From Nitrospirota bacterium (GTDB lineage Bacteria > Nitrospinota_A > UBA7883), in NCBI GenBank assembly GCA_024275315.1, contig JAJRZK010000049.1:74577-138576 (forward strand): a stretch of DNA of 64,000 nt, given 5' to 3'. The position numbers and the translations under genes were made by a program. Shown one piece after another: positions 1,564-27,642 of the stretch. The stretch's first letter is position 1. Each line of letters starts with the position of its first letter. The notes beneath the pieces were generated by a model. The model was not told the DNA's origin, did no database searches, and saw nothing but the letters and a program-made list of their open reading frames with translations.

Positions 1564-1620
1564 CGATCTCTAAAGGACGGAGAGGCTTGTTTGAGCCCGG
1601 ATAGGCTGACCCCGGAGGGC

Positions 1621-3405: not shown

Positions 3406-3484
3406 GAGTCTGCTGTGGCGCCGGGATCAACCGGTGGCGAAACCGGGGGCCTGGCTGATGGAGACTTGCGCTTCAGGCGTTTTT

Positions 3485-6400
3485 TCATATCCACGCCGAT
3501 TTTTTTATGGCCTCGAGCAGGTCCTCCGCGTCGAGCTTGAGCAGAAACTGGTCCACACCGGCTTCTAAGGCCTGGGACACATACTCCTCCTGGGCGTAAT
3601 TGGTCAGCATTATCACCGGTAGCGAAGGATGTATGCGCTTGACTATCCTGGTGAATTCGCATCCGTCTATACGCGGCATTTCCAGGTCGGTGACGACCAG
3701 GTCCACACCATTTACAAGCCCCAGCCCCTCTTCGCCATCCTCCGCCTGGGTCACGTTGTAGCCGGCTTCGGTCAGAATGCGGCATATCATGTCACGCTGA
3801 GTCTGGGAATCGTCTACCACCAGTATGTTGTTGATGGTCCTGGCGTTCGTCTGCAACCTTGTTTCGGGCTTGATGGAGTATGTTTTTGTTTTGTTTTTTT
3901 CCGCGGCGGACGCAAAAACCTGGTCTGTGGAAAACAACAGCGTCACACGATTGTTGATTATAAGAGCCTCGTCCAGCGCCAGCTTGCCGGTGGCCCGTTC
4001 CAGCGCGGATTTTTCCACCTTGACAAGGCCACTCAGCTCGTTAACGATCAGCCCCGCCTTCCGCCCATCCTTTGTCAGGACGATAACGTACACTTTCTCC
4101 AGGTACGGAGGGGACTCGAAACCGGTTATGTACGGAGCCTTGGTTACAGGCAGGATTTCGTCGCCGTACTTGATCACATCCTGGGCGCCCACGTTTTCGA
4201 TCTGGTTTATGTTGATGATGCTGAGCTTGTTGATCCCCTTGAGGGCCATTCCGTATTGCTCCACCTGTCCGTCGCTTAGCAACAGCACCAGTTCCTCGTT
4301 GAAAACGCTCGTATCGACCCTCATCCTATCGGCGGTTTCAGAGTCTATGAGTTTGGCGACATTTATAATTTCGGTCACGTCCAGGATCAGCGCGATGGAT
4401 CCGTCTCCGAGTATGGTGGCGCCAGATATGTATTTCGCGTTGTAAATTCCCTGGAGCGAATCCAGCGGCTTGATCAGCACTTCCTCCTGGCCGAGCGTCC
4501 TGTCCACCACCAGGCCCACCTGTTTTATCCCGATCTTCACCACCACGATATCGAGCTGGTTCGATTCGTCGATGATGATAACCTCGCTTTCCAGGTTAAG
4601 CAGCTTGTTCATGAAAATGACCGGGAGTATCTCGTCTCTCAAACGCACGACCGGAACACCGCTGACCCATTCGATGCCCGATAGTGGCAACCGGACGGTT
4701 TCCATAACCGAAAACAGGGGTATGGCCAGCCTTTCCTCCTCCACCTGGCACAAAAGCGTCTGCATGATGGCCAGGGTCAGCGGGATGCGTATCTTTATCC
4801 TGGTCCCCTTTCCCGGTTGCGATTCAATATCTATCTGGCCCTTGAGGTTTTCTATGTTGGTCTTGACCACATCCATCCCCACACCGCGTCCTGAAACGTC
4901 GGACACCTCCTCCGCGGTGGAAAACCCGGGCAGGAATATCAGGGAAAGTTTCTCGGCGGGGCTGAGGGCCTCCACGGCTTCCGCGGTCAACAGCTTTTTC
5001 TCGATCACTTTGGTTGCGATGACATACTGGTCTATCCCTTTGCCGTCGTCTATGATCTCTATGATGATCGAGTTGCCCTCCTGGAACGCGTTTAAGTGTA
5101 TGGAACCGCGCCGCGGTTTGCCCGCGGTGACCCGGTCGTCGGGGAACTCTATTCCATGATCCACGCAATTGCGGATGATATGCATCAGCGGATCGGAAAT
5201 GGATTCTATCAGGTTCTTGTCCAGCTCCGTCTCGGAACCGCTGATGATGAGGTCCGCCTCCTTGCCCAGCGCTCTGCAAAGGTCGCGGACCACACGGTTG
5301 AACTTGCTGAAAATGTTGCCCACAGGCAACATCCTGGTGCTCATCACGGCCCCCTGCAGGCTACCGGTCACCATGTCGAGCTGGCTGGCCAGGTTGTTGA
5401 AGTCCTCGATGAGCTGCTCTGTTTTCTCCTCGTTTACCAGTTGGTGATTAAGCTGGTTGTACCGGTTCCGGAGAAGGACAAGCTCTCCCACCGAGTTCAT
5501 CAGATCGTCCAGCCGGGAGACGTTCACCCGGATTGTGTTTATTTTCTCCTTTGCGTGCTGGATGGACGGAGGCGTGTTCCCGACACGTTTATCGCCCGGC
5601 TTGCTTCCCGGTTGCGGCTCTACGACTCCTCCGTGCCGGGCGGACTGGATAGCCTCCAGGGCCATCATCAGCGAGCTTGTGTCTATATCTCCCTCGTTAT
5701 ACGTGGTCTTGAGGTTCTTGTTAAAAGCTCTCAGGGTGTCGTTTACCTCAAGACACGTGTCCAGAAGCTCTCTTGGAACAGGGGTTTTCGTCTCACGGTA
5801 ATATGACAGGGCCGATTCGGTGGAGTGGCAAAGAGCGCCGAGCTTTTTGAAACCCAGCGCGTTGGACATCCCTTTCATATTATGGATCTGCCGGAAACAG
5901 TTGTTTATCTCGTCCATCAGCCCCGGGTCGGCTTCCAGCTTCAGCAACGACAGCTCTATAACGTCGATATGCTCTCCAAACTCCTGCAGGAAATCAGGCA
6001 TGTACATATCGAGCATATGTTTGCGTTCCTCGTCCATCTCCTCCGTGGCGGGCGAGGGGGCGCTCTCGGGTTTGAGCTGTTCCCGGGCGGCGGCGAGCCT
6101 CGACACCAGGTTTTTTATGTTGATATTTTCATCGCTGGATTTGTCGGTGAGGCTGGAGTTGAACTCCCGAAGAAGATCGTTGAACTCGAACAGCAGGTCC
6201 AGCGTCTCCACCGGAGCCGGGATGGCTTGTGATCTTATCTCCGACAAAACAGACTCAACCCCGTGGCACAGATCCTCCAGCTTGGCCAGGCCGAGCGAGT
6301 TGGATATCCCTTTCATGTTGTGCGTGAGACGAAAAATGGAGTTTATCTCATCCTGGTTCGACGGCTCCTTTTCCAGCGATAACAGAGCGGCGTCTATGGT

Positions 6401-7126
6401 GTCGATATTTTCGCCCAGCTCCTGGACGAAAACGGCGATATGACCTGCTATGTCTTTTGGTTTTTCCTTCGGCTCCGGCGGGGGGGGTGGTGTTTTCGAG
6501 TCCAGAAGGATCGCAAGTTTCGTGTCGAACGGGACGGTGTCTATGGTTTCGTCGCATGTCGGGTCCATGATCTGGTTGCGCACATAGTCCATGCAGTTGT
6601 CGAACCCTTGCAGTGTGTCGATCAGCTCGATGGACACGTCCCGGTCGCTAACCTCGTAGATGGCCGATTCCAGAGATTTGCAAAGAGCCGCAAGCCTGGG
6701 CATGCCGGTTTTTTCCGCCTGCTCGCCCACCGCCTGGCAATAGGCGAGGCACGCGCCAAGCTCTCCTTTGGCGCCGGGGTTGTCCTTGAGTTTCGCAAAA
6801 GATGCGCTGAACAACTCCGCCTTGGCCGTAATTTCGTCCGTGTATTTTTTTTGCGCTTCCGGTTCCAGGGCTGGTTTTTCCTCTACGGGTCCGGGGTTGC
6901 TCTTGGGGGTGTCTAAGTCGGCGGCGGTTTCCTGCGGTGAGGGCCCGCCCTGCGTGTCCGGCTCTGGCTGTTCCGGGGAAACGTCGTGTGACTTGGTGAA
7001 AAACTGCCCCAGGATCTGCTCGTCGGTGCTGAACGGATTTTCAAACAGGGGCTTTCTTGGCTTCTTCGCCGATTTGGCCCGTTTGCGTTTTTTGCCCGGG
7101 ACCGGCTTTTTTTCTTTATTCGCCAT
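3485..7126 (-). CDS. cheA: Hybrid CheA-type histidine kinase: Lys-rich N-terminus, 2 Hpt domains, dimerisation + HATPase_c, 2 CheW-like domains, C-terminal receiver (ChpA/FrzE-like)
   Basis: Two 'HNMKG' Hpt motifs. 'GRGVGMDVV' lies in an H-box-less CheA catalytic core. Tandem CheW-like regions follow. C-terminal 'ILVVDDS...LVVTDLEMPRIDG'. Its start overlaps the upstream parA-like stop by 11 nt. Confidence 0.9.
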   Translation of the reverse strand: MANKEKKPVPGKKRKRAKSAKKPRKPLFENPFSTDEQILGQFFTKSHDVSPEQPEPDTQGGPSPQETAADLDTPKSNPGPVEEKPALEPEAQKKYTDEITAKAELFSASFAKLKDNPGAKGELGACLAYCQAVGEQAEKTGMPRLAALCKSLESAIYEVSDRDVSIELIDTLQGFDNCMDYVRNQIMDPTCDETIDTVPFDTKLAILLDSKTPPPPPEPKEKPKDIAGHIAVFVQELGENIDTIDAALLSLEKEPSNQDEINSIFRLTHNMKGISNSLGLAKLEDLCHGVESVLSEIRSQAIPAPVETLDLLFEFNDLLREFNSSLTDKSSDENINIKNLVSRLAAAREQLKPESAPSPATEEMDEERKHMLDMYMPDFLQEFGEHIDVIELSLLKLEADPGLMDEINNCFRQIHNMKGMSNALGFKKLGALCHSTESALSYYRETKTPVPRELLDTCLEVNDTLRAFNKNLKTTYNEGDIDTSSLMMALEAIQSARHGGVVEPQPGSKPGDKRVGNTPPSIQHAKEKINTIRVNVSRLDDLMNSVGELVLLRNRYNQLNHQLVNEEKTEQLIEDFNNLASQLDMVTGSLQGAVMSTRMLPVGNIFSKFNRVVRDLCRALGKEADLIISGSETELDKNLIESISDPLMHIIRNCVDHGIEFPDDRVTAGKPRRGSIHLNAFQEGNSIIIEIIDDGKGIDQYVIATKVIEKKLLTAEAVEALSPAEKLSLIFLPGFSTAEEVSDVSGRGVGMDVVKTNIENLKGQIDIESQPGKGTRIKIRIPLTLAIMQTLLCQVEEERLAIPLFSVMETVRLPLSGIEWVSGVPVVRLRDEILPVIFMNKLLNLESEVIIIDESNQLDIVVVKIGIKQVGLVVDRTLGQEEVLIKPLDSLQGIYNAKYISGATILGDGSIALILDVTEIINVAKLIDSETADRMRVDTSVFNEELVLLLSDGQVEQYGMALKGINKLSIININQIENVGAQDVIKYGDEILPVTKAPYITGFESPPYLEKVYVIVLTKDGRKAGLIVNELSGLVKVEKSALERATGKLALDEALIINNRVTLLFSTDQVFASAAEKNKTKTYSIKPETRLQTNARTINNILVVDDSQTQRDMICRILTEAGYNVTQAEDGEEGLGLVNGVDLVVTDLEMPRIDGCEFTRIVKRIHPSLPVIMLTNYAQEEYVSQALEAGVDQFLLKLDAEDLLEAIKKSAWI

Positions 7127-7856
7127 TTAGCACTTTCCGCACTATCTTGTCATAATCCTCCGCGCCATACGATTTTGGCGCATATGTGAAAATATCCTGA
7201 TGAGCCCCGACCGCTTCGGACAGCTTTACATTTTTTCTTACCGGGTTGGATACGTTTTGACCGAAACGGCTGTTGAGACTTTCAAGCACTTCCTGGCTTT
7301 TTCTGTCCCGTTTATCGTAAAACGTGGGGATAATCATCCCGATTTTCAGTTTATGCCCCATCCTGGACTGAATCCATTCCAGGTTGTCGATCACTTCCCT
7401 GGCTCCGATCAACGAAAAATAATCCATCGCCACGGGAACAAAAGCCTCGTCGGCGTATAACATGGCGTTCAGGTTGAGCAGGTTCAGCGACGGAGCGCAA
7501 TCCAGGATCACGTAGTCCATGCCGTCGAGATTTTTCATGGCCCTGATCAGGATTTTCTCACGGTCGTTCCGGGTCGCCATGAAAATCTCCGCCTGGGCCA
7601 GTGTCTTGTTGCTGGGGATCAGCCAGAGATTGTCATCTATCGGATACAGACATCTATCGAGATCGATGTTTTCCACCAGAAGATGAAACAGATTATGGCT
7701 GAACCTCAGGTTGTACCAGATCCCCAGACCTCCCTGGGGGTCCATGTCGATAAGCAGTACTTTTTTGTTGTGGCGGCGCAGGCCAGACGCTATGGTCGCC
7801 GACGTGGTCGTCTTTCCCGTTCCGCCTTTCTGGTTGATCACGACTATTTTACGCAT
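7116..7856 (-). CDS. ParA/MinD-family ATPase embedded in the chemosensory operon (ParC/PpfA-like)
   Basis: Deviant Walker A 'NQKGGTGKTT'. 246 aa. Sits between cheW and cheA with overlapping stop/start. Confidence 0.85.
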   Translation of the reverse strand: MRKIVVINQKGGTGKTTTSATIASGLRRHNKKVLLIDMDPQGGLGIWYNLRFSHNLFHLLVENIDLDRCLYPIDDNLWLIPSNKTLAQAEIFMATRNDREKILIRAMKNLDGMDYVILDCAPSLNLLNLNAMLYADEAFVPVAMDYFSLIGAREVIDNLEWIQSRMGHKLKIGMIIPTFYDKRDRKSQEVLESLNSRFGQNVSNPVRKNVKLSEAVGAHQDIFTYAPKSYGAEDYDKIVRKVLNGE

Positions 7857-7869
7857 TCTGGCGCCATCT

Positions 7870-8337
7870 TCACGCAGGTTGCGCTTCCTGGCCCGGCTCG
7901 GCGGATTCCTGCGGATCCCGGATCAGGTTTTTTATGTCGATAAGAACCACGAGCGAATCCAGACCCTTGTAGACACCAAGTATATGTTTGGGGTCGATGA
8001 TGGTTGTTTCCGACCGCATGGGGTCGATGCTGTCGGCCGGAATTTCCATGACGGTCGATAACGAGTCCACCTGGACGCCGATTTTTTTTGTCTCGTCGAG
8101 TTTGCAGATTATTATCCTGGATTCGTCGCTGTCCTCGGACATGGACAGGTTCAGCTTCGCCCGCAAATCGATAAGGGGCACGATCAGGCCGCGCAAATTG
8201 ATGATGCCTTTCAGGAATTTCGGAGCGTTGGGGATTATGGTGATACGAAATTCCGACAGAAATATGATCTCCTGGACGACCAGGACATCTATGCCGAAAA
8301 GCTCGTTGCTTATATAAAAATTGATATATTTTGGCAT
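7870..8337 (-). CDS. cheW: Chemotaxis coupling protein CheW
   Basis: 155 aa. Typical CheW core 'LFGIDVLVVQEI..........IINLRG'. Confidence 0.9.
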   Translation of the reverse strand: MPKYINFYISNELFGIDVLVVQEIIFLSEFRITIIPNAPKFLKGIINLRGLIVPLIDLRAKLNLSMSEDSDESRIIICKLDETKKIGVQVDSLSTVMEIPADSIDPMRSETTIIDPKHILGVYKGLDSLVVLIDIKNLIRDPQESAEPGQEAQPA

Positions 8338-8768
8338 ACTGGTTCCTCAACGGCTTGGGCCGAGCACCGTTTCAGTTGACAGACTCGGATGACTTTTCCC
8401 CATCAAGAGCCCGCTACTACGCAACGTCACATTGCATACTACATTTTATGGCAAGATGGACGCAAGTTTTTCGATGTTTGCGCAAAGCGGCTTCGGGGAC
8501 GGGCGCCCGGTTCCGGTTTTTTCACGAGGTGCGAATCCCGAAAACAACTGGATATTCCGCGTAAAATCAAACATGGACGGGCAATCGCCAACTTTGCGGA
8601 AACATGCGTAATTTAATTTCTTTCAACAGATAAAATGTGTTAGTATTGCAATCTTTTAAAGCTCGCATTGTATATATTTGTAGCATCCGGAGAATGCCTT
8701 AAACAGCAGGTGTTTTTTTTGGACCGATTCTTTTAAAAGCAATTAAGGGTTTAAGAGGGTTTTCGTAG

Positions 8769-9910
8769 ATGCGATTCATGACCGGCAAAGCCGTCGCTTG
8801 TGCCATTGCCATAGCGCTGGTTATCATAACATCACCCGTTCCCGCCGCTTCCAGCATGACCAACGAGGAGATGGAGAAGAAAATCCAGGCGCTCGAGGAG
8901 AAAATAGAGGAACTCGAGGCGAATTCCGAAATAAACTCCGCCATCGGCGACGACCTGGAAACCCGGCTTGACAACCTGGTGAGAATTTCCGGCTACCTGG
9001 CCGTGGAATATATCGCCACCGACAAAAAGATGATGTCAGCAGGTTCCGGATTCATCATCTGTCGCTCTTTTTCGACCGGGACCTGACCGACAAGTGGAAA
9101 ATCTTTTCCGAAATCGAGTATGAAGACGCCCCGTACATAGAGTATTCCACCTCCAAAGAAACAATAAACGGCGAAGGCAAGATACTGGTGGAACAGGCGT
9201 ACACGGACTTTACCGCCGACCAGAAGCTTAACGTCCGCGCGGGCCGGTTTCTCACTCCCGCGGGGATATGGTTGATACACCACTATCCACCCTTTGTTCC
9301 GACCCAGGCGCGGCCACAACATATCAGGAAGATTTTTCCGCAATACACGGACGGCGTCTCCGTTTTCGGCGATTTTAACATGGACACCAACCTGCTGTAT
9401 TACAACCTGTATTACGGTAACGGGGAGGGTAACCAGGGGCATGGAGACGGGAACCAGGACAAGGCTGTTGGTGGTCGTCTTCAGTTCATTGCAAACGGCC
9501 CGTTTGAGCTTAAGGCAGGCGCGTCGGGCTATACAGACACGCTGAACAACGGCACGGGAAAAACATCGATCGGGGCCGACCTGGCTTTCAGGTACGCTGG
9601 GATGAAGTTTCAATCGGAATACGCCATCGGCGATTATGATCCCGCGGAGGGAAACACATACAGGTCCATCGGCTATTACGCCCAGGTGCAATACTCTATC
9701 GGCAGACACACCATATTTTACCGGTACGATTTCTACGAGCCAAGTGACCAGGCGGACCTCGACCAGGTCACCGTCAATACCGGCGGGATGAACTATCATT
9801 GGACTCCCACGGTTGTCTCCAAGATAGAGATCAACTCCTACGCCCACGAAAGCGGTTCTTCTGCAGAGGACTATGTCGAGTGGATATTGAGTTCCGCGAT
9901 TTTCTTCTGA
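8769..9910 (+). pseudogene. Outer-membrane porin-like gene (signal peptide, coiled coil, beta-barrel; OprO/P-like or DcaP-like). It is split by a +1/-2 frameshift near 9021-9050.
   Basis: ORFs 8769-9086 (frame 0) and 9188-9910 (frame 2) are contiguous when read across the A5 run 'gacaaaaag' (9021-9029): '...VEYIATDKK|DDVSRFRIHHLSLFFDRDLTDKWKIFSEIEYEDAPY...MEQAYTDF...'. The product is rich in aromatic and beta-strand residues and ends in F. Confidence 0.5.
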
Positions 9911-9922
9911 CCGGGATAACAA

Positions 9923-10396
9923 ATGTTTGATATGGGGAAATTTATGGTTTCATTCAGATCGTTGGCCCTCCTGGCGGTAGCGGTTAATGTTTCCATTGCG
10001 CTATCGGCGAACACCGCGTTTTCAGAAACGATAGCGATAATAGTCAACCGCGACAACCCTGTGGAAAGCGTCACCGAGCAGGACCTGAAGAAATTTTATT
10101 CCGATATTTCCGTAAAGTGGTCCACCGGTGAGCGGGTAAAAATATACGATCTTCCCATCAACAACGAGGCCAGGAAAATATTTTCGGCGAAAATTCTGCA
10201 AAGAAGCCCTGAGGATGTGACTATGGAATGGGCGAATAAAAGAATAACCAACACAGCCAAAAATCCTCCCAATACCCTCAAATCCCAGGTGCTGATGCAA
10301 TCGAAGGTGGCGTCGGAAAAGGGGGGGCTCGGATATATGTTCGCCGACAAGGTTAACCACAAGAAAGTAAAAGTCGTCCTTACTATCAAAGAGTAG
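9923..10396 (+). CDS. Small secreted PstS/PBP-like (phosphate/phosphonate-binding-like) domain protein
   Basis: Signal peptide. 'IAIIVNRDNPV...L...F' pattern of periplasmic binding-domain proteins that often sit next to MCP/GGDEF sensors. Confidence 0.5.
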   Translation: MFDMGKFMVSFRSLALLAVAVNVSIALSANTAFSETIAIIVNRDNPVESVTEQDLKKFYSDISVKWSTGERVKIYDLPINNEARKIFSAKILQRSPEDVTMEWANKRITNTAKNPPNTLKSQVLMQSKVASEKGGLGYMFADKVNHKKVKVVLTIKE

Positions 10397-17183: not shown

Positions 17184-17187
17184 CGGC

Positions 17188-17452
17188 TGGTTTCGAACGG
17201 AACGGCCTGTCTTACCGGGCTGTCACTATCGATAAATTGATATCCGCATAAAAGAATAGCTGCTGGTTCCGGGCGAAACGGTCTGTCTTGCCGGGCTGTC
17301 ACTATCGATAAATTGATATCCGCATAAAAGAATAGCTGCTGGTTTCGAACAGAACGGCCTGTCTTACCGGGCTGTCACTATCGATAAATTGATATCCGCA
17401 CAAAGAATAGCGGCTGACCCCGGGCGGAACGGTCTGCTTTACCTGTGGGTGT
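17188..17452. repeat. Intergenic tandem repeat, 76-bp unit x about 3.5, between convergent helicase and yqgE-like genes
   Basis: Units at 17188-17263, 17264-17339 and 17340-17414, plus a partial fourth. Unit core 'gtcttaccgggctgtcactatcgataaattgatatccgcataaaagaatagc'. Confidence 0.8.
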
Positions 17453-18311: not shown

Positions 18312-18660
18312 TATCGCCCTCGCGACTCGGGTGTCGCCCTCGCGACTCGGGTGTCGCCCTCGCGACTCGGGTGTCGCCCTCGCGACTCGGGTGTCGCCCT
18401 CGCGACTTGGGTGCCACACTCGCGACTTGGGTGCCACACTCGCGACTTGGGTGCCACACTCGCGACTTGGGTGTCACACTCGCGACTTGGGTGTCACACT
18501 CGCGACTTGGGTGCCACACTCGCGACTTGGGTGCCACACTCGCGACTCGGGTGTCGCCCTCGCGACTCGGGTGTCGCCCTCGCGACTCGGGTGTCGCCCT
18601 CGCGACTTGGGTGTCGCCCTCGCGACTTGGGTGTCGCCCTCGCGACTTGGGTGTCGTCGG
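18312..18660. repeat. GC-rich 20-bp minisatellite, about 17 copies, with block-ordered unit variants, upstream of a diheme cytochrome c gene
   Basis: Perfect 20-nt register. Units A 'cgcgactcgggtgtcgccct' x4, B 'cgcgacttgggtgccacact' x3, C 'cgcgacttgggtgtcacact' x2, B x2, A x3, D 'cgcgacttgggtgtcgccct' x2, then a degenerate unit. Confidence 0.9.
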
Positions 18661-18720: not shown

Positions 18721-19638
18721 ATGGCAGTATATGTTTTGTCACGCGTAAAGGTGAGCGGTACGAACTCGCGCCGTTCCAACGCCGCTTCAAGACCGTTTTC
18801 GCCGGTCACGGTTGCGTGCCTTGTTTTGGTAATGGCGTTATTATCCATCCCCTGCGGATCGTTTGCCACGCCCGGTTCTGTGGAGAACGGCGCCGCGCTT
18901 TACATGGTGCATTGCGTCCAGTGTCACGGGCCCGGGGGCAAAGGCGATGGAACAGCGGCCCAATACCTGCCAAGGCGGCCAAGGGATTTTACCGAAGGGT
19001 TGTACAAGATAAAAACAAGCCCGCCGACAACCATGCTCTCCAGGGACGAGGATATTTATTATTCGATAACGAAAGGCATGTCAATAGCCGGAATGCCGCC
19101 GTGGGAAAAAGTTCTCACTGACAAACAAAGGTGGGACCTGGTGGCGTATTTAAAATCCCTTTCGGATTTGTACGACGATGAGCCCAACCCGGAGCCGCTC
19201 GATTTGGGCGGGCGGATTCCACCTTCACCGGACAGTGTAAAACGGGGCAACCGGGCCTATTTCAAGCTGCTTTGCCATGAATGCCATGGTGAGACGGGAC
19301 AGGGACCATCCATTAAAAAGCTCAGGGATGATTACGGCGACAGGATTTGGCCCCGGGACCTGACCAGGACCGACACCTTCATCGGTCCTGCTACACCCGA
19401 TGCGATTTACACCCGCATAACCAACGGCATCCCGCTGACGCCGATGCCTGCACATGTAAAAAACCCGAATAACGATCAGCTCGAGGATCTTAGGTGGGAT
19501 ATAGCCAACTATATAGTCTGGCGGGCCGCTGAAGCGCAGAAACTGAGGAGGGAGAGGATGTTGAAAATCGTGGGCGCGTCCTTGGTTATCCTGGGCGCCG
19601 GCATGATATTCTTTCGGCGCCGTAACGCCAGGGCATAA
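18721..19638 (+). CDS. Diheme c-type cytochrome (class I, c4/CcoP-like) with signal peptide and C-terminal TM anchor
   Basis: 'CVQCHG' and 'CHECHG' heme-binding sites. Hydrophobic 'VACLVLVMALLSIP' near the N-terminus. C-terminal 'LKIVGASLVILGAGMIFF'. The start is uncertain; the track ORF reads through the repeat from 18292. Confidence 0.6.
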   Translation: MAVYVLSRVKVSGTNSRRSNAASRPFSPVTVACLVLVMALLSIPCGSFATPGSVENGAALYMVHCVQCHGPGGKGDGTAAQYLPRRPRDFTEGLYKIKTSPPTTMLSRDEDIYYSITKGMSIAGMPPWEKVLTDKQRWDLVAYLKSLSDLYDDEPNPEPLDLGGRIPPSPDSVKRGNRAYFKLLCHECHGETGQGPSIKKLRDDYGDRIWPRDLTRTDTFIGPATPDAIYTRITNGIPLTPMPAHVKNPNNDQLEDLRWDIANYIVWRAAEAQKLRRERMLKIVGASLVILGAGMIFFRRRNARA

Positions 19639-19783: not shown

Positions 19784-20377
19784 GTGGACTTGAAAGCGAC
19801 GACAATATTCTCGATGGGCCTGGTTGCGTTGCTCATCATCGTAGTAGCCGGCGTCATCATCCCCAACCCCGTAAAAGGGCTTATCCTCAGCGAAGCCAAG
19901 GCCAGCGGCTATGTTGAATATACACCCATGGAAGCCTATGACCTGGCCAAAACGATATGCACCCAGTGTCACAGCGTTGAAAGAATAAAGCTGTACTGTC
20001 CACGGTGCGGACCTCCGTTCGTGGCCGTCGTTCCCCATATGCAGACGTTTATAGACAACTTCAGAAAATCCAAACCGGACATGGAGTTTACGAATATCAC
20101 CCAGCCCCAGGCCGTGGCCATCGTACAGGTATGGAACGCGCTGGTGGGCAATTGGGAGACCGACTTCCGGGAGCAGGACATTCTCAAGCTGATCGGCCAA
20201 TATGACCTGCTGGCCGAGCTGTACAAAACACCGGTGGAACAGCGGCCGATCGAATATGCGTTGAGCATGCGCGATGACCTCAAGATAGGGCACATGTCCG
20301 GACAGTTGGACGCTCAGAAAGACCTCGGCAAAAAACCCGGCGACAACACCAAATCCACAACAGGTCCAAACCAATGA
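19784..20377 (+). CDS. Membrane-anchored monoheme cytochrome c-like protein
   Basis: N-terminal TM 'IFSMGLVALLIIVVAGVII'. A single 'CTQCH', plus a second Cys pair 'CPRCG'. AGGAG upstream; a TTG at 19790 is an alternative start. Confidence 0.55.
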   Translation: MDLKATTIFSMGLVALLIIVVAGVIIPNPVKGLILSEAKASGYVEYTPMEAYDLAKTICTQCHSVERIKLYCPRCGPPFVAVVPHMQTFIDNFRKSKPDMEFTNITQPQAVAIVQVWNALVGNWETDFREQDILKLIGQYDLLAELYKTPVEQRPIEYALSMRDDLKIGHMSGQLDAQKDLGKKPGDNTKSTTGPNQ

Positions 20378-20402
20378 TAATGAAACGGGCTGTCCTTATG
20401 AC

Positions 20403-21023
20403 ATGGTGAGGGAAATGGATCAGGCAGTATCCGGCAAGGCCGGCCCGCAGGAAGTCGAGGGGGCCGACGTCTCACGGCCCGGACGGCTCAACCATCTTGT
20501 CTATCTCGCCGCCGCCGGTATATTGCTTACGGCGATATTCAATCATTCCGTGGAATCCAGGAACGTGAAAACTCTCAAGGCGGGAGATTCCATGCCTTCT
20601 TTCTCGCTTGCGCTGACTGACGGGCGAAAGGTTTCTCAAGCCGATTTTACGGGAAGCCCCACCATATATTTTTTCTATGCGAACTGGTGTCCATGCTCCC
20701 ACCTGTCGGTCGACTGGATAAAAAAAGCGTTCGAGGACCACAAGGCCGAAGGGCTCAAGGTGTTGAGCGTCGGTGTGCAGGATTCTTCCGATAAGCTGAA
20801 GGATTTTGCGATGAAACACGAGCTCCCCTTTCCGGCGTGCGCGGTCGGGGGGGACGATGTGGCCGCCAGTGTCGGGGTGTCTATTACGCCCACCACCGTT
20901 TTTGTGGACAGCGAGGGTGTTATAAAATCGGTTTACGTTGGCAAGATAGAAAAATATGAACAGATCAGCGGGGGGTTGACCAGCATTTTGTCCGACGGCG
21001 TCGGCGCCTCTGGCTCGGCGTAG
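20403..21023 (+). CDS. TlpA/ResA-like periplasmic thiol:disulfide oxidoreductase with atypical 'WCPCS' (CXC) active site
   Basis: Thioredoxin-fold pattern 'IYFFYANWCPCS...VLSVGV...PFPA...D...V...V..TPTTVFVDSEGVI'. N-terminal TM anchor. Confidence 0.65.
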   Translation: MVREMDQAVSGKAGPQEVEGADVSRPGRLNHLVYLAAAGILLTAIFNHSVESRNVKTLKAGDSMPSFSLALTDGRKVSQADFTGSPTIYFFYANWCPCSHLSVDWIKKAFEDHKAEGLKVLSVGVQDSSDKLKDFAMKHELPFPACAVGGDDVAASVGVSITPTTVFVDSEGVIKSVYVGKIEKYEQISGGLTSILSDGVGASGSA

Positions 21024-21042
21024 TGTTCACGCACATGTAGTT

Positions 21043-21816
21043 ATGTCGATAATCGAAGCTTATTTCGGGGGGTTGGCGGCCTTTTTCTCCATCTGGATAT
21101 TCTGCATGATGCAGGTTATCCCTTTTCTGCTGGCGTACATGGTCGGGGCCACCCTCATAGGTTCCGCCTCCGGCAAAGAGCGGATAACCCTGTTTCTCAC
21201 GTCTGGCGCGCTGGTTTTCGTCGGATTCGCCGTTGTGTTCGTGGCCCTCGGCACACCCACCACCAGCCTTAGCAAATTCCTGTTCAGACACCAGGGGTTG
21301 CTCAACCAGTTCGGTGGAGTGATCGGCGGGATGGCCGGACTTTACCTTGCCGGTATCCTGACAATCGACCGGACGGCCGGCTCTTTTAAAGTCATCAGGC
21401 CGCTGGCGGAACTCCTGGTTGGCGCTGCCGTCGCGCTGGCGTATAAGCCCTGTGTGACACCCATTCTAACGAAAATATATAACCTGTCAGGCGTGGCCGA
21501 GACCGCCGGTTTCGGCGGATTGCTGATCCTGTTTTACACAATGGGGATGTTTACCGCCATCTACGCTCTGGCCGCTGTCATACTTTGGGCTGTATCGGCC
21601 AAACCTTCGGCCATGATACAGACAGGGATGATAAAAATATGCGGAGCCGCGCTTCTGGCGTTCGCTTTCCTCGTTCTGAGCGGTAGCATGACAAGCTACA
21701 AGAGCTTTCTTGTGGGAAGGTTCGTGCCGCAACAGCCGGGCCATGTACACAGCGACGGCTCCATGGGGGGAGCCGCTATGGATCATTCCGGTCACATGGA
21801 TATGGATACAAAATGA
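21043..21816 (+). CDS. ccdA: CcdA/DsbD-family cytochrome c biogenesis thiol-disulfide transporter with His/Met-rich C-terminal tail
   Basis: Six TM helices. Conserved Cys in TM1 ('IWIFCMMQVIPF') and TM4 ('YKPCVTPIL'). Tail 'HVHSDGSMGGAAMDHSGHMDMD'. Confidence 0.7.
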   Translation: MSIIEAYFGGLAAFFSIWIFCMMQVIPFLLAYMVGATLIGSASGKERITLFLTSGALVFVGFAVVFVALGTPTTSLSKFLFRHQGLLNQFGGVIGGMAGLYLAGILTIDRTAGSFKVIRPLAELLVGAAVALAYKPCVTPILTKIYNLSGVAETAGFGGLLILFYTMGMFTAIYALAAVILWAVSAKPSAMIQTGMIKICGAALLAFAFLVLSGSMTSYKSFLVGRFVPQQPGHVHSDGSMGGAAMDHSGHMDMDTK

Positions 21817-22715
21817 AAACCCGCACAAAACACAAAATCAGTCCACACCCGATTCTGGCGATCGCAATAGTTTTATGTTTCGCCGATATGTCCTATGGCG
21901 AAATGGACCATTCCAAGATGGGTCATTCCAAAATGGATCACTCGAAGATGGAGCGACCGGCGGACCTTGGCGGGATGAAGGAGAATATGCCGATGACGGG
22001 GGGAATAAAACCCCCAACAGGGGGAGTGAAGTCTCCGTCCGACGATGGCGGAAAGCTGGTGATAGGCCGCATGAAAGTCACCCTGATGCCGGAGTATGAC
22101 GCCCCTGCCATAATCGTCATCAAGGAAGGGAAGTTCGCCGACAGGACCGCGTTCCCCACGGAGGTCAATTTTACACTCCCCAAGGGGGTGACAAAGCTTA
22201 CCGATGTGTGCAGTCTCTCCCCCGGCGGGCATCATTTCTGCCAGCTGTTCGACATCAAGCAGGGGGATGACCGGAATTATCTGGATGTGAAGCTTCCCTT
22301 CTCCGATTTTTTCATAGACTATCAATACACCCCGTTCCAGGTAAAAGAGAATTCCATGCGGGAGTTCTCGTTCGACGTGGACACCTCCTATGACATAAAC
22401 ACGCTGGAAATCCATGTGCAACGGCCATTAAGGGCGGACAAGTTCACTATCACCCCGGCGCCGATGGAGACATATGAAAAAGACGGATTCAAATACCTGA
22501 AATACACGTATAGAAAAGTGAAATCAGGTGATTTGAGACAGGTGACGGTTTCGTATTTCAAAAAAGGCGCGGCTCCGTCTGTGGAGAAAAAGTTCTCTGC
22601 GATGAAATCGCCGGGAATGTTCGAGGGAAGCACAGGAGAGATACTGCTTGTGGTGGGAATGGTGGCGCTGGGCCTGGCTTTCTATGCCCGTCGCCGAAAA
22701 CGGGCCGGAAGATGA
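21813..22715 (+). CDS. Secreted, C-terminally TM-anchored protein with N-terminal (M/G)DHSKM x3 His/Met repeat (putative metal-binding)
   Basis: Signal peptide. 12-bp DNA repeat encoding 'MDHSKMGHSKMDHSKM'. C-terminal 'ILLVVGMVALGLAFYARRRKR'. ATGA start/stop overlap with ccdA. Confidence 0.55.
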   Translation: MKTRTKHKISPHPILAIAIVLCFADMSYGEMDHSKMGHSKMDHSKMERPADLGGMKENMPMTGGIKPPTGGVKSPSDDGGKLVIGRMKVTLMPEYDAPAIIVIKEGKFADRTAFPTEVNFTLPKGVTKLTDVCSLSPGGHHFCQLFDIKQGDDRNYLDVKLPFSDFFIDYQYTPFQVKENSMREFSFDVDTSYDINTLEIHVQRPLRADKFTITPAPMETYEKDGFKYLKYTYRKVKSGDLRQVTVSYFKKGAAPSVEKKFSAMKSPGMFEGSTGEILLVVGMVALGLAFYARRRKRAGR

Positions 22716-22721
22716 TGGTAT

Positions 22722-23165
22722 GTGCGTAAAATGAAAACGCTGGTGTTGGCAGTTTCGTTTCTGGGCGTTCTTGCGTTTATGAGCGGAAAATATATATTCA
22801 TGGTTTCCGCTCCGGACAACTCGGTCATGGGCGTATCCCATTCGCTGGCGTGTCCTTGTGAATGTCCCATGGTGCTGGAGGACTGCCACATGAGCTGTGG
22901 TCTCGAGTGGAAAGACCTGATAGGCGATAAACTTAAAGCGTCACTTACTAAAACAGATATAACAGCCTATTTTTATAAGCGTTATGGCAAGGAGGCGCTA
23001 CTTACACCCGCCCAGAGAATTTCGGGCAAATGGTATGAGATAACCCGTGGGGGATATCCGGCCAAGGACATGGTATTATTCGGCCTGATTGTGATAGTCT
23101 GGACAGCGCTGGTATATACCGGTTTGATGATGATAGTGGAGAAGTTCAAATCGCAAAAAGTATAG
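22722..23165 (+). CDS. CcmH/NrfF-like protein with unusual Cys-rich motif 'CPCECP...DCHMSC'
   Basis: Signal peptide. A Cys cluster, then 'ITAYFYKRYGKEALLTP' plus a C-terminal TM, as in CcmH ('...RYGdfVly.P' + TM). Confidence 0.5.
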   Translation: MRKMKTLVLAVSFLGVLAFMSGKYIFMVSAPDNSVMGVSHSLACPCECPMVLEDCHMSCGLEWKDLIGDKLKASLTKTDITAYFYKRYGKEALLTPAQRISGKWYEITRGGYPAKDMVLFGLIVIVWTALVYTGLMMIVEKFKSQKV

Positions 23166-23176
23166 CACGTCCGCTT

Positions 23177-23938
23177 GTGACCCTGGCCATATCTGTCATG
23201 GTGGCGTACCCTGTCGTGTCAAACGCCGGTAAGGTGGGCGCAAGGTTGCCTGTTCCAGCCGGAATCGTCATCATGGGCGCCGACGCCAGCCAGCTGAAGG
23301 GGCAGATTTCCGAACCCAGGGCGAAAGTGGAATGGTACATGGACGAAACCCCGCGGAAAAAGGTGGAGTTGCCCCCCTTTTTTATTGACGCCACGGAAGT
23401 GACCAACGCCGAGTATCAGAAAATCATCCCTGACCACAGCTATCCCGCCAACCTGGCGGACCATCCCGTGGTGAACGTCACATGGGACATGGCGGACGAA
23501 TATTGCCGGAAAGTGGGGGGCGCTCTTCCTACGGAGGCCCAGTGGGAGCGGGCCGCCAGGGGTGATGACGGGCGTATATACCCCTGGGGAGACCAGTTCG
23601 ATCCGGCCAACGTTGTGTATATGGATAGCGTGAAAGGTGGTTCAAAACAAAAGGTGGGATCGTTCGATCGTGAGCAGAGCGGCTCTTCACTTCTGGGCGG
23701 CACGAGCCCCGTGGCGTCTCGTGAGAACGGCAAGAGCCCTTTTGGAACCTATGACATGGCGGGCAACGTGTGGGAGTGGGTTGACGGTTATTATGACGAA
23801 AGCAAGGGACTGCGACTGTTAAAGGGCGGGTCCTGGCTCTCTCCGCAATCTTCCGTCCGGTCGTCCACCCGTCTGGGTGACGAGGGCGGAGGCAGGTTCA
23901 ACGATTACGGATTCCGATGCGCGTACGATCATAAATGA
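23177..23938 (+). CDS. Periplasmic formylglycine-generating-enzyme (FGE-sulfatase/SUMF1) family protein
   Basis: 'PVVNVTWDMADEYCRKVGGALPTEAQWERAARG', 'YPWGD', 'YDMAGNVWEWV', 'LKGGSW', 'GFRCA' are FGE-domain hallmarks. N-terminal signal-like region. Confidence 0.8.
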   Translation: MTLAISVMVAYPVVSNAGKVGARLPVPAGIVIMGADASQLKGQISEPRAKVEWYMDETPRKKVELPPFFIDATEVTNAEYQKIIPDHSYPANLADHPVVNVTWDMADEYCRKVGGALPTEAQWERAARGDDGRIYPWGDQFDPANVVYMDSVKGGSKQKVGSFDREQSGSSLLGGTSPVASRENGKSPFGTYDMAGNVWEWVDGYYDESKGLRLLKGGSWLSPQSSVRSSTRLGDEGGGRFNDYGFRCAYDHK

Positions 23939-24147
23939 TGCGAGTGATAAAAAAGATCGTAGGCGCCGTGGCGATCACGGCCCTCCTCCTTGTATTCACC
24001 GGGGTAGGGGGGTATTTCGTCCTCTACGACAACTATAATGATTTCAAGTCGGATATCGACACCGTCACAAGGCGAGCAAAGCTGGAGCTTTTCAACAGGG
24101 GGTACAATGTGAAAATAACCGCCGACGACGTCCGGTATATCTACTAG
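23935..24147 (+). CDS. Small single-pass membrane protein (hypothetical)
   Basis: 70 aa. TM 'IVGAVAITALLLVFTGVGGYFVL'. ATGA overlap with the upstream gene. Confidence 0.4.
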   Translation: MMRVIKKIVGAVAITALLLVFTGVGGYFVLYDNYNDFKSDIDTVTRRAKLELFNRGYNVKITADDVRYIY

Positions 24148-24183
24148 AAACGGTGTTATCGGCAGTGCCACGGAGAATCGGCC

Positions 24184-24804
24184 ATGATAACCGCTGTCCT
24201 GTCCCCCGCCGGCTGGTTCCAGGTGGTTGAGAGGATGAGGGTGAAAGAAGGGGTGAACATCTCAGGCGGGGAGGCGGACATTATCATCAAGTACCTGGAG
24301 GAAACCTACCCCACCACAAAATCCACATATTCCTTTGATGTCCGCAAAAAGGTCCACGAGGCTGTGTGGAGAAACGACATGGGGCAGGGGGACATCTACC
24401 TGGACGTGATCTACGCCACCCCGGAATACCTGTCCTCGATCGGAGCTGAATATCTGATAGACGAATATGATCTGGAAAACTATCATGTTTATATAATCAG
24501 CTTTACCGTGCACGAGGGAGAGCTGGACCTGTTCGACCTGGACAAGATCGTTTATATGCGCTCCGACCTGGGTAAAATAGCGACGACGCCGCCGTGGCGC
24601 CTGCGATTTCAGACTGCGGATAAACATCATTTCGAGGCGCTGGTGAAGTTCAGAAAAAAAGGGGACGACGCTATCGTTAAAAGCGGCATAAAATGGTTCG
24701 AGCTGGTGATACAGGGCATAGGGGGGCCGGATGACAGAGTGTACCGGTGGAACCTGCCGATAGTCTATCCCCCGGAAATAGAAAAAGTCAGCATGGCGAA
24801 TTGA
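24184..24804 (+). CDS. Hypothetical protein (no recognised domain)
   Basis: 206-aa ORF in an operon-like arrangement with its neighbours. Codon usage is consistent with them. Confidence 0.4.
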   Translation: MITAVLSPAGWFQVVERMRVKEGVNISGGEADIIIKYLEETYPTTKSTYSFDVRKKVHEAVWRNDMGQGDIYLDVIYATPEYLSSIGAEYLIDEYDLENYHVYIISFTVHEGELDLFDLDKIVYMRSDLGKIATTPPWRLRFQTADKHHFEALVKFRKKGDDAIVKSGIKWFELVIQGIGGPDDRVYRWNLPIVYPPEIEKVSMAN

Positions 24805-24808
24805 ACCG

Positions 24809-25324
24809 ATGAAATCAGCGCAAAAAATTTTCGTAGCCCTCGTTTTTGTGGCGGTCGCCCTGGCGTCGTGCACGGAGGAGAAGATGGAGTCCCCTCCCAG
24901 GCCGGCCCCTCAGCCGGTTCCGGAGTTTAACCTTGAACAGTTGACCGGTGGCAAGCTCGGCTCCAGGCAGTTGATCGGCAAACCGGTGATAATCAATTTC
25001 TGGGCGACATGGTGCCTGTCATGCCTGGAGGAAATGCCGGAGCTCGACCGGTTTTACCGTGCGAAAAGGGATTCCGGCGTGGAAATGATCATGATCAATG
25101 TTAAAGAGCCGAAAAAAGTGGTGAAAGAATTCATCGACACCAACGGGTACGCCTTTAAAACGCTGCTGGACGAAACAGGGGACGTGACGGACAGTTTCCA
25201 GGTTTTCGGCCTGCCGTCGACCTATTTCGTGGATAAAGCCGGAGTGATTCAATACAGGCATATGGGCTCTTTGACCAGGCAGATCATCTATCGCGGATTC
25301 GACATCATCACCGGCAAGGAATAA
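24809..25324 (+). CDS. TlpA-like thioredoxin-fold lipoprotein (thiol:disulfide interchange), canonical WCxxC
   Basis: Lipobox 'LASC'. 'VIINFWATWCLSCLEEMPEL', 'FGLPSTYFVDKAGVI'. Confidence 0.8.
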   Translation: MKSAQKIFVALVFVAVALASCTEEKMESPPRPAPQPVPEFNLEQLTGGKLGSRQLIGKPVIINFWATWCLSCLEEMPELDRFYRAKRDSGVEMIMINVKEPKKVVKEFIDTNGYAFKTLLDETGDVTDSFQVFGLPSTYFVDKAGVIQYRHMGSLTRQIIYRGFDIITGKE

Positions 25325-25475: not shown

Positions 25476-25552
25476 TGGCGGGGTCGACGAGATTCGAACT
25501 CGCGACCTCCGGCGTGACAGGCCGGCGTTCTAACCAGCTGAACTACGACCCC
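25476..25552 (-). tRNA. tRNA-Asp (anticodon GUC), CCA encoded
   Basis: Reverse complement reads GGGGTCG-TA-GTTC-AGCTGGTTA-GAAC-G-CCGGC-CTGTCAC-GCCGG-AGGTC-GCGAG-TTCGAAT-CTCGT-CGACCCC-G-CCA, a cloverleaf with a GUC anticodon loop. Confidence 0.85.
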
Positions 25553-25704: not shown

Positions 25705-27642
25705 ATGAGCCTGATTCAATGCGTAATAGGAACGGCGGGGCACATCGACCATGGCAAGACGAGCCTCGTAAAAGCCCTGACCGGAATCGATTGCGATCGT
25801 TTCGAAGAGGAGAAACGGCGCGGTATAACGATCGATATCGGATTCGCCAGGATGACTTTTCCCGGTGGCGGGACCGCGGGGATCGTGGATGTCCCCGGTC
25901 ATCAGCGTTTCATACACAACATGCTGGCAGGTGTCGCCGGGATAGACCTGGCGATGCTGGTGGTCGCCGCGGATGACGCGGTTATGCCCCAGACTGTAGA
26001 GCATCTTGCCATACTTGAGATTCTCGGTGTGAATCGCGGTATTGTGGTGCTGACCAAGACTGACCTGGTGGATGAAGAGACGCTAGAGCTTGCGGAGATG
26101 GAAGTGGGTGATCTTGTCGCCAATTCCCACCTGGCAGGTTCTGAAATAATAAAGTGCTCGAGTGTGACGGGGGAGGGGATCGACCGGCTGCGGGACGAGC
26201 TGGAGCGGCTCTGCTCCACGGTGGTGAACCGCAGGTCGGACCGGTTTTTCCGTATGCCCGTTGATCGTGTGTTCACCATCAAGGGGCATGGCCTGGTGGT
26301 GACGGGAACGGTGTCGAGCGGTGGAGTAAAGCCGGAGGACCGGTTGACGCTGGTCCCCGGCGGCAAGGTGGTCCGGGCTCGTCGGGTTCAAAGTCACGGG
26401 GCCAGCGTGGACCACGCCGGACCGGGTACCAGGACCGCGATAAACATAACCGGGGCGAGCAAGGGGGATATCGAGCGGGGAACGGTCATCGTTCACCACG
26501 CTATCGCTAAAACGTGTAAACAGTTCACCGCGGAAGTGGTGTGTCATTCCACTTCACCGTTAAAGATCGTCCACGGCATGTCGTATCTTTTGCATGTCCA
26601 TACCGCCGAAACCTTGTGCAGGGTCTACCTGGCCAGCCGGAAAAGCCTGGAACCGGGGAGCCGGTCCATCGCCCAGGTGCGGTTCGAGGGTTACGCGCAC
26701 ATTATCCATGGCGACAAGTTCGTCCTGCGCTCTTCTTCGGCGCGGCACACCGTCGGCGTAGGTGTTGTCGCAGAGCCAGGTGGAAAGCCGCTGGGACGCA
26801 GGCGCTTGAACGCGCTTATGGAAAAATGGAGCGCGCTCGCCGGAACTGAACTGGCGGATGGGGTCAGAGCCGTCACAAAAGAACGTCCCCTTGGGTATCC
26901 GGTTTCTTCGTTGATGGCGATGTTCAACATCATAGAGAGCAGGGTGGGGCAAATCATGAACCAGCTTTCCGGCGAAGTTTCATCATTCGAATGGAAGGGC
27001 GAAAAATACGCTTATATCACCGCGGCGGCGGACGATGTTATGGACGCTATCACGGGCGCAGTGAGAAATTTTCACAAAAAACATCCGGCTTTGCAGGGAA
27101 TAGAGGAATCGTCCCTGGCAAGCTCCGCGGCGCCTTCGCTCACGGCGGAACTGGCCGGATACTGGATACGCCGGGCGATATCGTCCAGGAGGATAGAGTG
27201 CGTCGGTTCCGCTCTGCGACTGCCAGGCCGGCAGGTGGAGTTTTCGGGGGGAAACGAGAAATTGCGCAGATCAATACTGGAAGCCTACAGGGCCGGAGGG
27301 CTGAAGTCCCCCCCAAAAACCGACAAGGTGGGGGGCATGCTGGGGATAAAAAAAAGCGAGGCCCAAAAGATGATCAGAATCCTCAACCAGACCGGAGACT
27401 TGGTCACCCTGGCTCCGGATTACACGTTGCATCGTGACACTCTTGACAGCGCGCAAAAAACGCTGGTGGAAGAGATTGAAAAGGCCGGGTTCGTGGAGAC
27501 CGCCAGGTATCGGGATTTGCTCGGAGTAGGGAGAAAGGCGGCCATAGACATTCTCGAGCATTTCGACAGGGCCGGGTTTACCATGAGAAAAAACAACAAA
27601 AGAGTTTTGGCGTCGGGCCATGATGGAGGGAAAGAAGCATGA
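25705..27642 (+). CDS. selB: Selenocysteine-specific translation elongation factor SelB
   Basis: G domain '[13 protein letters not shown]...DVPGHQRF...TKTDL'. The 645-aa length, with winged-helix C-terminal extensions, is typical of SelB. Confidence 0.88.

Follow-up and report, generated by a model that had tools for sequence, protein, structure and literature searches.

What brings thioredoxin-like, CcmH-like and cytochrome c genes together in one operon in which two of the encoded proteins have lost the CXXC of their families? The question is raised by positions 19784-25324 (+ strand) of the window, by which we mean the whole 64,000-nucleotide stretch of DNA analysed here, from Nitrospirota bacterium assembly GCA_024275315.1 (contig JAJRZK010000049.1). 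We show that these genes form a real operon present across several phyla and built from largely unnamed families, which represents a new variant of the periplasmic thiol-reductant/copper-chaperone theme. We give roughly even chances to the reading that the encoded proteins form a membrane-tethered periplasmic relay for thiol reduction and Cu(I) handling, by which a periplasmic, respiratory copper enzyme encoded elsewhere is matured or maintained, plausibly the lactonase-type nitrous oxide (N2O) reductase L-NosZ or another CuA-type enzyme. The original prediction, made from the sequence of the window, had described nine co-oriented, tightly packed genes. The co-oriented run stands, neighbouring genes being -4 to +25 bp apart, and so do seven of the descriptions, but the count is eight, one of them interrupted, since two supposed unknowns merge into a single cytochrome c gene. 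The genes, together with a cytochrome gene upstream of them (g0), are the following.

g0, 18721..19638, + strand: dihaem c-type cytochrome (CVQCH, CHECH) with a C-terminal transmembrane helix; Pfam Cytochrome_CBB3, E = 8.7e-22
g1, 19784..20377, + strand: N-terminal transmembrane helix and monohaem cytochrome c (ICTQCH); a further motif is YCPRCGPP
g2, 20403..21023, + strand: membrane-anchored thioredoxin-fold protein of the ResA/TlpA/CcmG type with WCPCS; Pfam AhpC-TSA/Redoxin
g3, 21043..21816, + strand: divergent CcdA/DsbD-family protein with six transmembrane helices and a His/Met tail
g4, 21813..22715, + strand: signal peptide, MDHSKM/GHSKM repeat, two-beta-sandwich domain and C-terminal transmembrane helix
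g5, 22722..23165, + strand: CcmH-fold protein with a signal anchor and a C-terminal transmembrane helix; Pfam CcmH, 27.0 bits
g6, 23177..23938, + strand: secreted protein with the FGE/SUMF fold (FGE, formylglycine-generating enzyme); Pfam FGE-sulfatase, E = 7e-47
g7/8, 23935..24804, + strand: N-terminally anchored monohaem cytochrome c (CYRQCH) with a C-terminal immunoglobulin (Ig)-like beta-sandwich; interrupted by a TAG codon
g9, 24809..25324, + strand: TlpA/ResA-family lipoprotein with WCLSC; Pfam AhpC-TSA, E = 3.8e-25

We found that this cluster is conserved as a unit far beyond chance. With each species represented by a single genome, a scan gave 22 loci, every one in a Nitrospinota metagenome-assembled genome (MAG), and the order g1-g2-g3-g4-g5-g6-g7/8-g9 is present in 17 of them as well as in about 25 metagenome loci, some 40 Nitrospinota-type clusters in all, an outcome that upholds the unity of the neighbourhood on which the original prediction depended. 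Protein identity to the window at the genome loci ranges from 36 to 82%, the flanks are unrelated or rearranged, and the two most distant of the 22 loci keep g7/8-g9 only. A metagenome scan with a g5 alignment added 80 further loci, which synteny mapping resolved into three architectures. Type A is the eight-gene order of the window (the ~25 metagenome loci above). Type B has the order g4-g5-(AhpD/CMD-like; CMD, carboxymuconolactone decarboxylase)-g7/8-g9-g2-g3-small membrane protein-Sco1/SenC-PCuAC-TlpA, with Sco1/SenC in 10 loci, PCuAC in 8 and a third TlpA, followed in some loci by an FGE-like protein and a cytochrome b. Type C consists of g4/g5-g7/8-g9-g2-g3 and then, directly, a protein of ~590-615 amino acids (aa) that combines a beta-propeller with a cupredoxin domain; in a 'Gammaproteobacteria' MAG of this type the module divergently precedes the propeller-cupredoxin gene. 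The core g4, g5, g7/8, g9, g2 and g3 recurs in 'Gamma-' and 'Deltaproteobacteria' MAGs, at 39-50% identity for g5, and g2, g4, g5 and g7/8 contain Cys, His and Met residues that are invariant across all types. In addition, g5 is fused to an FGE-like protein in one database entry (P0194) and to g4 in three others (P0199, P0200, P0253), g5 itself is rare, with 50 matches at E < 1e-3 among 1.84 billion representative proteins, and the FGE-like gene is inverted yet still kept in a divergent locus (L023). The conserved order, the rarity of g5, the fusions and this retention of g6 make it very likely that the cluster proteins act together.

Differences from known thiol pathways lie at the cysteines of g2 and g5. 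The g2 protein retains the thioredoxin fold and the cis-Pro motif (TPTT), and its closest solved structure is ResA (4nmu, 3c71), but the CXXC characteristic of TlpA, ResA and CcmG is absent: in an ungapped alignment with ResA, the canonical second Cys is a Ser and an extra Cys occupies X2. WCPCSH is found in 24 of 24 database homologues of g2 and in the orthologues from 15 genome loci, and WCPCS is kept across the cluster types, followed by either H or N. A match of g2 to Pfam SCO1-SenC (E = 0.003, 17.9 bits) falls below the cut-off of 22.8. The g5 protein is the most conserved member of the module and belongs to Pfam CcmH/NrfF (PF03918; 27.0 bits against a cut-off of 25, residues 13-99); the window protein has no match in NCBIfam, where a type B orthologue matches NrfF only at E = 2e-4. 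Instead of the LRCXXC redox motif, g5 has LACPCEC, followed by a further invariant DC(H/N)MSC, so that five invariant Cys lie within ACPCECP(M/L)(V/I)LEDC(H/N)M(S/N)CGL(E/D)WK, and ACPCECP..LEDC.M.CGL is near-invariant across phyla. Over 18 loci, SLACPCECPMVLEDCHMSCGL is invariant except at its first residue, and LACPCECPMVLEDCHMSCGL shows no variation among 18 orthologues. Aligned by hand with LRCPQCQ of E. coli CcmH, CPCEC has Glu at the position of the second Cys, between two Cys. Both the one-residue-short CXC of g2 and the CPCECP...DCHMSC of g5 had been pointed out in the original prediction, which allowed that the former could be a sequencing error; invariance in g2 (24 homologues, 15 loci) and g5 (18 loci) rules this out. 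CXC-type relatives of CcmH are not limited to the module: a CcmH-like set from other phyla, one annotated as Acidobacteriota (P0204, P0208, P0211, P0213, P0214, P0216, P0218, P0219), has C-x-C-x-C and further Cys, for example LMCQCGCSMVLASCNCG.

The remaining thiol proteins are g9 and g3. As originally described, g9 is a canonical TlpA-like lipoprotein, matching Pfam AhpC-TSA (88.7 bits) and Redoxin (72.3 bits), with a WCXXC active site that reads WCLSC in the window and WC(V/A/I)PC in orthologues and a conserved lipobox Cys; its 113 bits against NCBIfam ResA lie below the 170-bit cut-off and support membership at the family level only. For g3, a CcdA with a His/Met tail had been proposed. The tail (HVHSDGSMGGAAMDHSGHMDMD in the window; His-rich in 15 of 31 orthologues) and the six transmembrane helices are present, while the family match comes through an orthologue (L001), with 26.9 bits against a cut-off of 27.1 for Pfam DsbD_TM (PF02683, positions 8-216 of 219); the window protein has no Pfam match even at E = 10. 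The family is marked by one conserved Cys in transmembrane helix 1 and another in helix 4; in g3, a transmembrane Cys pair, FC(L/M)MQ(V/I)xPF and YKPC(V/I)TP, is invariant across types, where the motifs take the forms FC..Q..PF and Y(K/S)PC..P, and by its sequence g3 appears to be a divergent CcdA/DsbD member or a member of a sister family. Another thioredoxin-fold protein of the window, unrelated to the cluster, is encoded at 54869-56971 (+) (700 aa, DUF255/thioredoxin-like; PF03190, E = 3e-60).

Two further proteins probably act with g5. The secreted nature of g4 and its threefold DHSKM repeat, both claimed before, are borne out by a signal peptide and by an N-terminal MDHSKM-type array that Tandem Repeats Finder (TRF) places at 21903-21952 (15 bp x 3.3). 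Among 99 homologues of g4 none has a Pfam family, and NCBIfam offers no family but weak matches to CopI and CopA; the AlphaFold model reaches a predicted local distance difference test (pLDDT) value of at least 90 over the domain. An invariant motif in g4, D(A/V)CSLSxxGxHFCQL, and an invariant H...HH in g7/8 are candidate ligands. In turn, g6 has a complete FGE-sulfatase domain (PF03781, 160.6 bits) and is secreted like pFGE/SUMF2, and its best PDB match is the inactive paralogue SUMF2 (1y4j). None of 19 orthologues has Cys at the catalytic FGE positions: where KGGSWLSPQSSV is aligned with the human fragment KGGSYMCHRSYC, Ser and Val stand at C336 and C341. With the catalytic Cu(I)-binding Cys pair absent in all orthologues, g6 is not a copper-dependent, formylglycine-generating oxidase, and the FGE fold loses the value as a pointer to Cu(I) that the original prediction had given it. 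A role as scaffold for g5, or as its binding partner, is the more probable one for g6; the two are fused in P0194. Secretion is also a feature of the NirV-type FGE-fold proteins, which are encoded beside copper nitrite reductases.

The cluster cytochromes g1 and g7/8 each have a CXXCH in a predicted exported domain after a transmembrane helix. In the window, g7/8 appears as two open reading frames (ORFs), 23935-24147 (70 aa) and 24184-24804 (206 aa), that share a frame and are parted solely by a TAG at 24145-24147, with CYRQCH lying between this TAG and the ATG at 24184; these are the "two unknowns" of the original prediction. When the two parts were joined and used as a query, the database yielded 69 relatives, each from a metagenome of Nitrospinota type. 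The 21 full-length homologues that we aligned are, without exception, single proteins of ~285-300 aa, 17 of them with Gln at the TAG position, and the short entries P0063 and P0069 are miscalled starts whose upstream frames are open and free of further stops. Either a lineage-specific nonsense mutation or a fault of the assembly accounts for the TAG; recoding by pyrrolysine or programmed read-through was rejected, since homologues have Gln (CAG to TAG, one transition) rather than Lys or pyrrolysine, and TAG also serves as the stop codon of 3 of 25 ordinary window genes. The C-terminal Ig-like beta-sandwich has no family in Pfam or NCBIfam, and its H...HH is kept across cluster types. The gene always adjoins g9, also where other cluster genes are missing (L018, L020, L025). 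In contrast to g7/8, g1 is confined to type A; it has no Pfam or NCBIfam match, and its alignment contains a conserved extra motif, YC(P/E)RCGPPF(V/I)AVVPHM. Upstream, g0 (with both CVQCH and CHECH) ends 146 bp before g1 and may belong to the system; similar dihaem cytochromes are encoded near the module in L004, L029-31, L040, L059, L062-64, L081 and L086. Its listed ORF starts at 18292 and crosses a 20-bp tandem repeat, and the true start is probably ATG 18670 or 18721. Two tandem arrays lie in the intergenic DNA upstream of g0, at 18314-18656 and 17186-17416; one has the 20-bp unit TCGCCCTCGCGACTTGGGTG in 17 copies (96% match) and gives spurious ORFs in several frames, and the second has a 76-bp unit in 3.1 copies.

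The Met/His-rich tails, which the original prediction took as a sign of Cu(I) handling, are of less weight than they seemed. Most type A clusters do encode one or more proteins with MDHSKM-type segments, but the tails shift among g1, g3 and g4 between orthologues and are missing in many; 15 of 22 g1 orthologues, for instance, have a His-rich C-terminal tail that the window protein lacks. In many orthologues the tails contain more His than Met. These segments resemble classical periplasmic copper-binding repeats, and we would regard them as accessory antennae rather than core evidence.

Clade III (lactonase-type) N2O reductases were reportedly first described in 2025. Their hosts include Nitrospinota, Nitrospirota, Desulfobacterota, Myxococcota and Pseudomonadota, and no nosR, D, F, Y or L, the copper/sulfur insertion and activation genes of other N2O reductases, can be identified adjoining their nosZ (PMC13477213). 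An alternative accessory system is therefore to be expected. In this respect, we found that the propeller-cupredoxin proteins of type C have a CuA signature and all five L-NosZ motifs (CX2FCX3HXEM, [DG]xHH, PHG, GPLH and EPH; bioRxiv 10.64898/2026.07.10.737647), with scores of 793 and 674 against NCBIfam NF052460 'L-NosZ' (cut-off 700). The L-NosZ gene abuts the module in three lineages (L029-31; L075/L077; L086), and in L086 it is followed by a cytochrome b and a NosD-like beta-helix fused to cytochrome c. NCBIfam of June 2026 has a model for L-NosZ and none for g1, g3, g4, g5 or g7/8; a literature search gave no account of these accessory genes, the founding L-NosZ paper, which may mention neighbours, lying outside its reach. 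It is tempting to go further and propose that the module is the unrecognised maturation/activation machinery of clade III N2O reductases, in which a thiol relay fed from the cytoplasm replaces NosDFYL/NosR and the CXC proteins, of CcmG and CcmH descent, carry Cu(I), and possibly sulfide, for CuA/CuZ-type centres; we put forward this narrower proposal tentatively, at well below even chances.

From the gene content, motifs, conservation, fusions and neighbourhoods that we observed, we infer the binding and electron-transfer steps of such a relay and the identity of its client as follows. The CcdA-like g3 would bring reducing equivalents from the cytoplasm across the membrane to g9, which would keep the Cys of its partners and of the client copper site reduced, a role modelled on that of TlpA acting on ScoI and CoxB. 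The g2 (CPCS), g5 (CPCEC...C..C) and g4 (C...HFC) proteins would be Cu(I) or possibly Cu-S carriers, or else specialised thiol exchangers, and the variable His/Met-rich tails would serve as copper-capturing antennae. The anchored cytochromes g1, g7/8 and perhaps g0 could supply or take up electrons, in the service of Cu(II)/Cu(I) conversion or of the client enzyme. Precedents exist for each of these steps: in Bradyrhizobium, TlpA reduces Cu-binding cysteines ahead of the metallation of CuA by Sco1/PCuAC (PMC7558416, PMC6669012), PcuC and SenC2 are required for N2O reduction at low copper, and CopG is a case of a thioredoxin-like protein with copper bound at a CxCC motif (PMC7558416). The earlier proposal of copper handling on a CcdA/TlpA/CcmH-type thiol pathway for a cupro-enzyme thus keeps its outline, now on account of the Sco1, PCuAC and L-NosZ neighbours in relatives, and loses the arguments from the FGE fold and the His/Met tails.

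Several findings weigh against a copper relay. No L-NosZ, Sco, PCuAC or other cupro-enzyme gene was found in the 64-kb window or within 10 kb on either side of type A loci, and no window protein belongs to Sco1/SenC (PF02630) or PCuAC (PF04314); the link of type A to a copper enzyme rests, for this reason, on homologous modules of other lineages. Adjacency to L-NosZ is limited to the three lineages, one locus (L081) borders a 644-aa multi-transmembrane protein and cytochromes c (5139-10293) instead, and the 'Deltaproteobacteria' loci L027 and L028 have no copper gene nearby. Potential ligands also vary: the His after CPCS in g2 and the His in g5 become Asn in distant types, and types B and C, which lie outside the Nitrospinota type, have no His/Met tails. 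Structural comparisons point in the same direction, as the fold search with g4 matched solely ribophorin-I/OST1 and the N-domains of M1 peptidases (TM-score ~0.4) and no copper chaperone, and the confident AlphaFold model of g7/8 found generic structural neighbours and no copper-chaperone fold. Finally, one cytochrome gene is interrupted in the window itself. In L081, the 644-aa protein has no NCBIfam match, and a nearby 554-aa dihaem protein has an N-terminus like that of g0.

Could the module serve cytochrome c itself? In such a scheme, a CcdA, ResA/CcmG-like and CcmH-like chain would reduce the CXXCH of g1 and g7/8 before a general haem lyase acts, in keeping with the families to which the proteins are related (DsbD_TM for g3, ResA/DsbE for g2 and g9, CcmH for g5), and with the g7/8-g9 pair standing alone in L018, L020 and L025, as would a cytochrome and its dedicated ResA-like reductase. 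We consider this unlikely, given that g2 and g5 have both lost the reductase-defining CXXC, that neither CcmF nor CcsBA haem lyase is encoded in or adjoining the cluster, and that ordinary CXXCH motifs make a special system unnecessary; the maturation of a specific cytochrome, one of the outcomes originally envisaged, is disfavoured on these last two grounds. It would also leave g4, the FGE-like protein and the His/Met tails without a role in haem attachment and the neighbouring Sco1, PCuAC and L-NosZ unexplained. Defence against copper or soft-metal stress in the manner of Scs or Cop, with thiol-disulfide repair, His/Met sequestration and Cu(I)-oxidising cytochromes, seems to us no more probable. 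It would make sense of the MDHSKM-type repeats, the His-rich tails, the weak CopI/CopA matches of g4 and a type A locus (L059) with a downstream Metal_resist protein and MacAB-like efflux system, and copper binding by a CXC/CxCC thioredoxin-like protein is known from the resistance protein CopG (PMC7558416). Yet the tails are dispensable in many orthologues and lacking in types B and C, neither the window nor the conserved surroundings of the cluster contain a P-type ATPase, Cus, a multicopper oxidase or a copper-responsive regulator, and the genes conserved beside the cluster are for biogenesis chaperones and for an enzyme of respiration rather than for efflux.

The presence of two or three membrane-anchored cytochromes c per cluster, and the position of the module directly upstream of L-nosZ in the same orientation, with the cytochrome b and NosD-like/cytochrome c fusion downstream in L086, could instead reflect electron delivery or reductive activation. 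Like NosR/NosX or NosB/NosGH/NosC, the module would then keep a Cu-S site active without assembling it, a function for which there is room in L-NosZ clusters devoid of nosR (PMC13477213). The chances of this are slim: the largest group of loci also contains the assembly factors Sco1 and PCuAC, thiol or Cys-rich proteins, as opposed to electron carriers, make up five of the eight, and no quinol-oxidising subunit lies within the module. The CXC cysteines might also traffic something other than copper, be it sulfide or persulfide for Cu-S or Fe-S centres, selenium, arsenic, or zinc or nickel through the His-rich tails. CXC motifs bind several soft metals and metalloids, a promiscuity that, with the excess of His over Met in many tails, the requirement of CuZ for a periplasmic supply of inorganic sulfide and the presence of selB 380 bp downstream in the window, lends this idea some appeal; it is nevertheless very improbable, as the selB neighbourhood is conserved in no other locus, no arsenic, selenium or nickel genes are nearby, and the recurring partners are copper chaperones. 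Each of these alternatives covers part of the gene set, and none explains the lost CXXC, the fusions and the Sco/PCuAC/L-NosZ neighbours together.

A thiol-reductant and Cu(I)-handling relay would resemble the TlpA-ScoI-PcuC system of Bradyrhizobium and Paracoccus, in which a tethered thioredoxin-like reductase and thioredoxin-fold or beta-sandwich copper carriers act on a Cys copper site (PMC6669012, PMC7558416). Relatives of the operon have Sco1/SenC, PCuAC and a further TlpA behind the module, and PcuC/SenC2 also serve NosZ. The window cluster differs in having neither Sco (CXXXC...H) nor PCuAC (H(M)X10MX21HXM): its putative carriers are the unrelated g4 or the CXC ResA-like and CcmH-like proteins, and it has a CcdA-like membrane protein and cytochromes of its own. 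With the thiol pathway of cytochrome c Systems I and II it shares the folds of g3, g2, g9 and g5, the topology and the periplasmic location, whereas CXXC is replaced by CPCS (g2) and CPCEC (g5), haem chaperone and lyase are lacking, g4 and the FGE-like protein are extra, and the neighbours are copper genes, not ccm/ccs. Like nosDFYL/nosR/nosX of clades I and II, the module lies beside a nosZ-family gene in some lineages, is expected to supply Cu (and S) or electrons, and has NosF/NosY-like ABC-2 genes and a NosD-like beta-helix near some copies. Unlike them, g1-g9 have no sequence relationship to NosD, F, Y, L, R or X, the module is thiol-based where those systems are based on ABC transporters or a flavoprotein, and the L-NosZ link holds in three lineages and not in the window. 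Scs systems consist of a DsbD-like protein and thioredoxin-fold proteins tied to copper. CopG (DUF411) is thioredoxin-like and periplasmic and binds a Cu4 cluster through a closely spaced CxCC plus Met, and in Cox11 two conserved Cys of an anchored beta-sandwich bind copper (PMC7558416); no cluster protein matches DUF411, CtaG/Cox11 or Scs in Pfam, the motifs are CPCS/CPCEC, and the context is respiratory rather than one of resistance.

Other genes accompany the module or share the window with it. The AhpD/CMD gene between g5 and the cytochrome (10424-11005 in L085) is present in 15 other type B loci, and the membrane protein after g3 in type B modules has 60 aa. Upstream of type B and some type A modules lies an ABC-2 transporter (ATPase, ABC2_membrane_2, ABC_transp_aux), at 4196-8479 (-) in L085, at 328-3732 (-) in L059 and also in L063/L064; DUF4340 was checked in L085 only, and the ABC-2 permease family includes NosY. 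Downstream of g9, most Nitrospinota loci (L001-L024) have a convergent conserved set, for example at 4283-9716 in L024, that comprises a PAS histidine kinase, a ~920-960-aa fusion of URO-D, 2Fe-2S ferredoxin and the corrinoid activator RACo, a protein that binds B12, and a sigma-54 response regulator. The window lacks these genes; N2O is known to inactivate cob(I)alamin. In the window, g9 is followed by tRNA-Asp at 25476-25552 (-) and by the selB gene already mentioned, which encodes a selenocysteine-specific elongation factor, at 25705-27642 (+) (TIGR00475, 368 bits); ARAGORN found no tRNA-Sec in the window, and a functional link of the operon to selB or the tRNA was discarded, this neighbourhood being conserved in no other locus. 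Further away, the gene at 39106-42516 (-) encodes a 1136-aa protein in which a molybdopterin oxidoreductase (formate dehydrogenase/PhsA-like) is joined to a cysteine desulfurase of the NifS/IscS type, and beside it, at 42617-44200 (-), a Rieske domain is fused to a glutamate-synthase-like domain.

As the accessory system that clade III N2O reductase seems to lack, the operon is a plausible but unproven candidate; it comprises six to eight periplasmic proteins that are inherited together, three of which have no family model in Pfam or NCBIfam. The maturation of L-NosZ bears on the prediction of true N2O sinks and on heterologous expression of the enzyme. In the organism of the window, the module may be decaying if the TAG in g7/8 is a recent nonsense mutation. 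Apart from N2O, CcmG- and CcmH-type proteins changed from CXXC to CXC in parallel in this module, and an invariant CPC in thioredoxin and CcmH folds would add new cases of redox scaffolds adapted to handle metals or to perform dithiol chemistry of an unusually oxidising kind.

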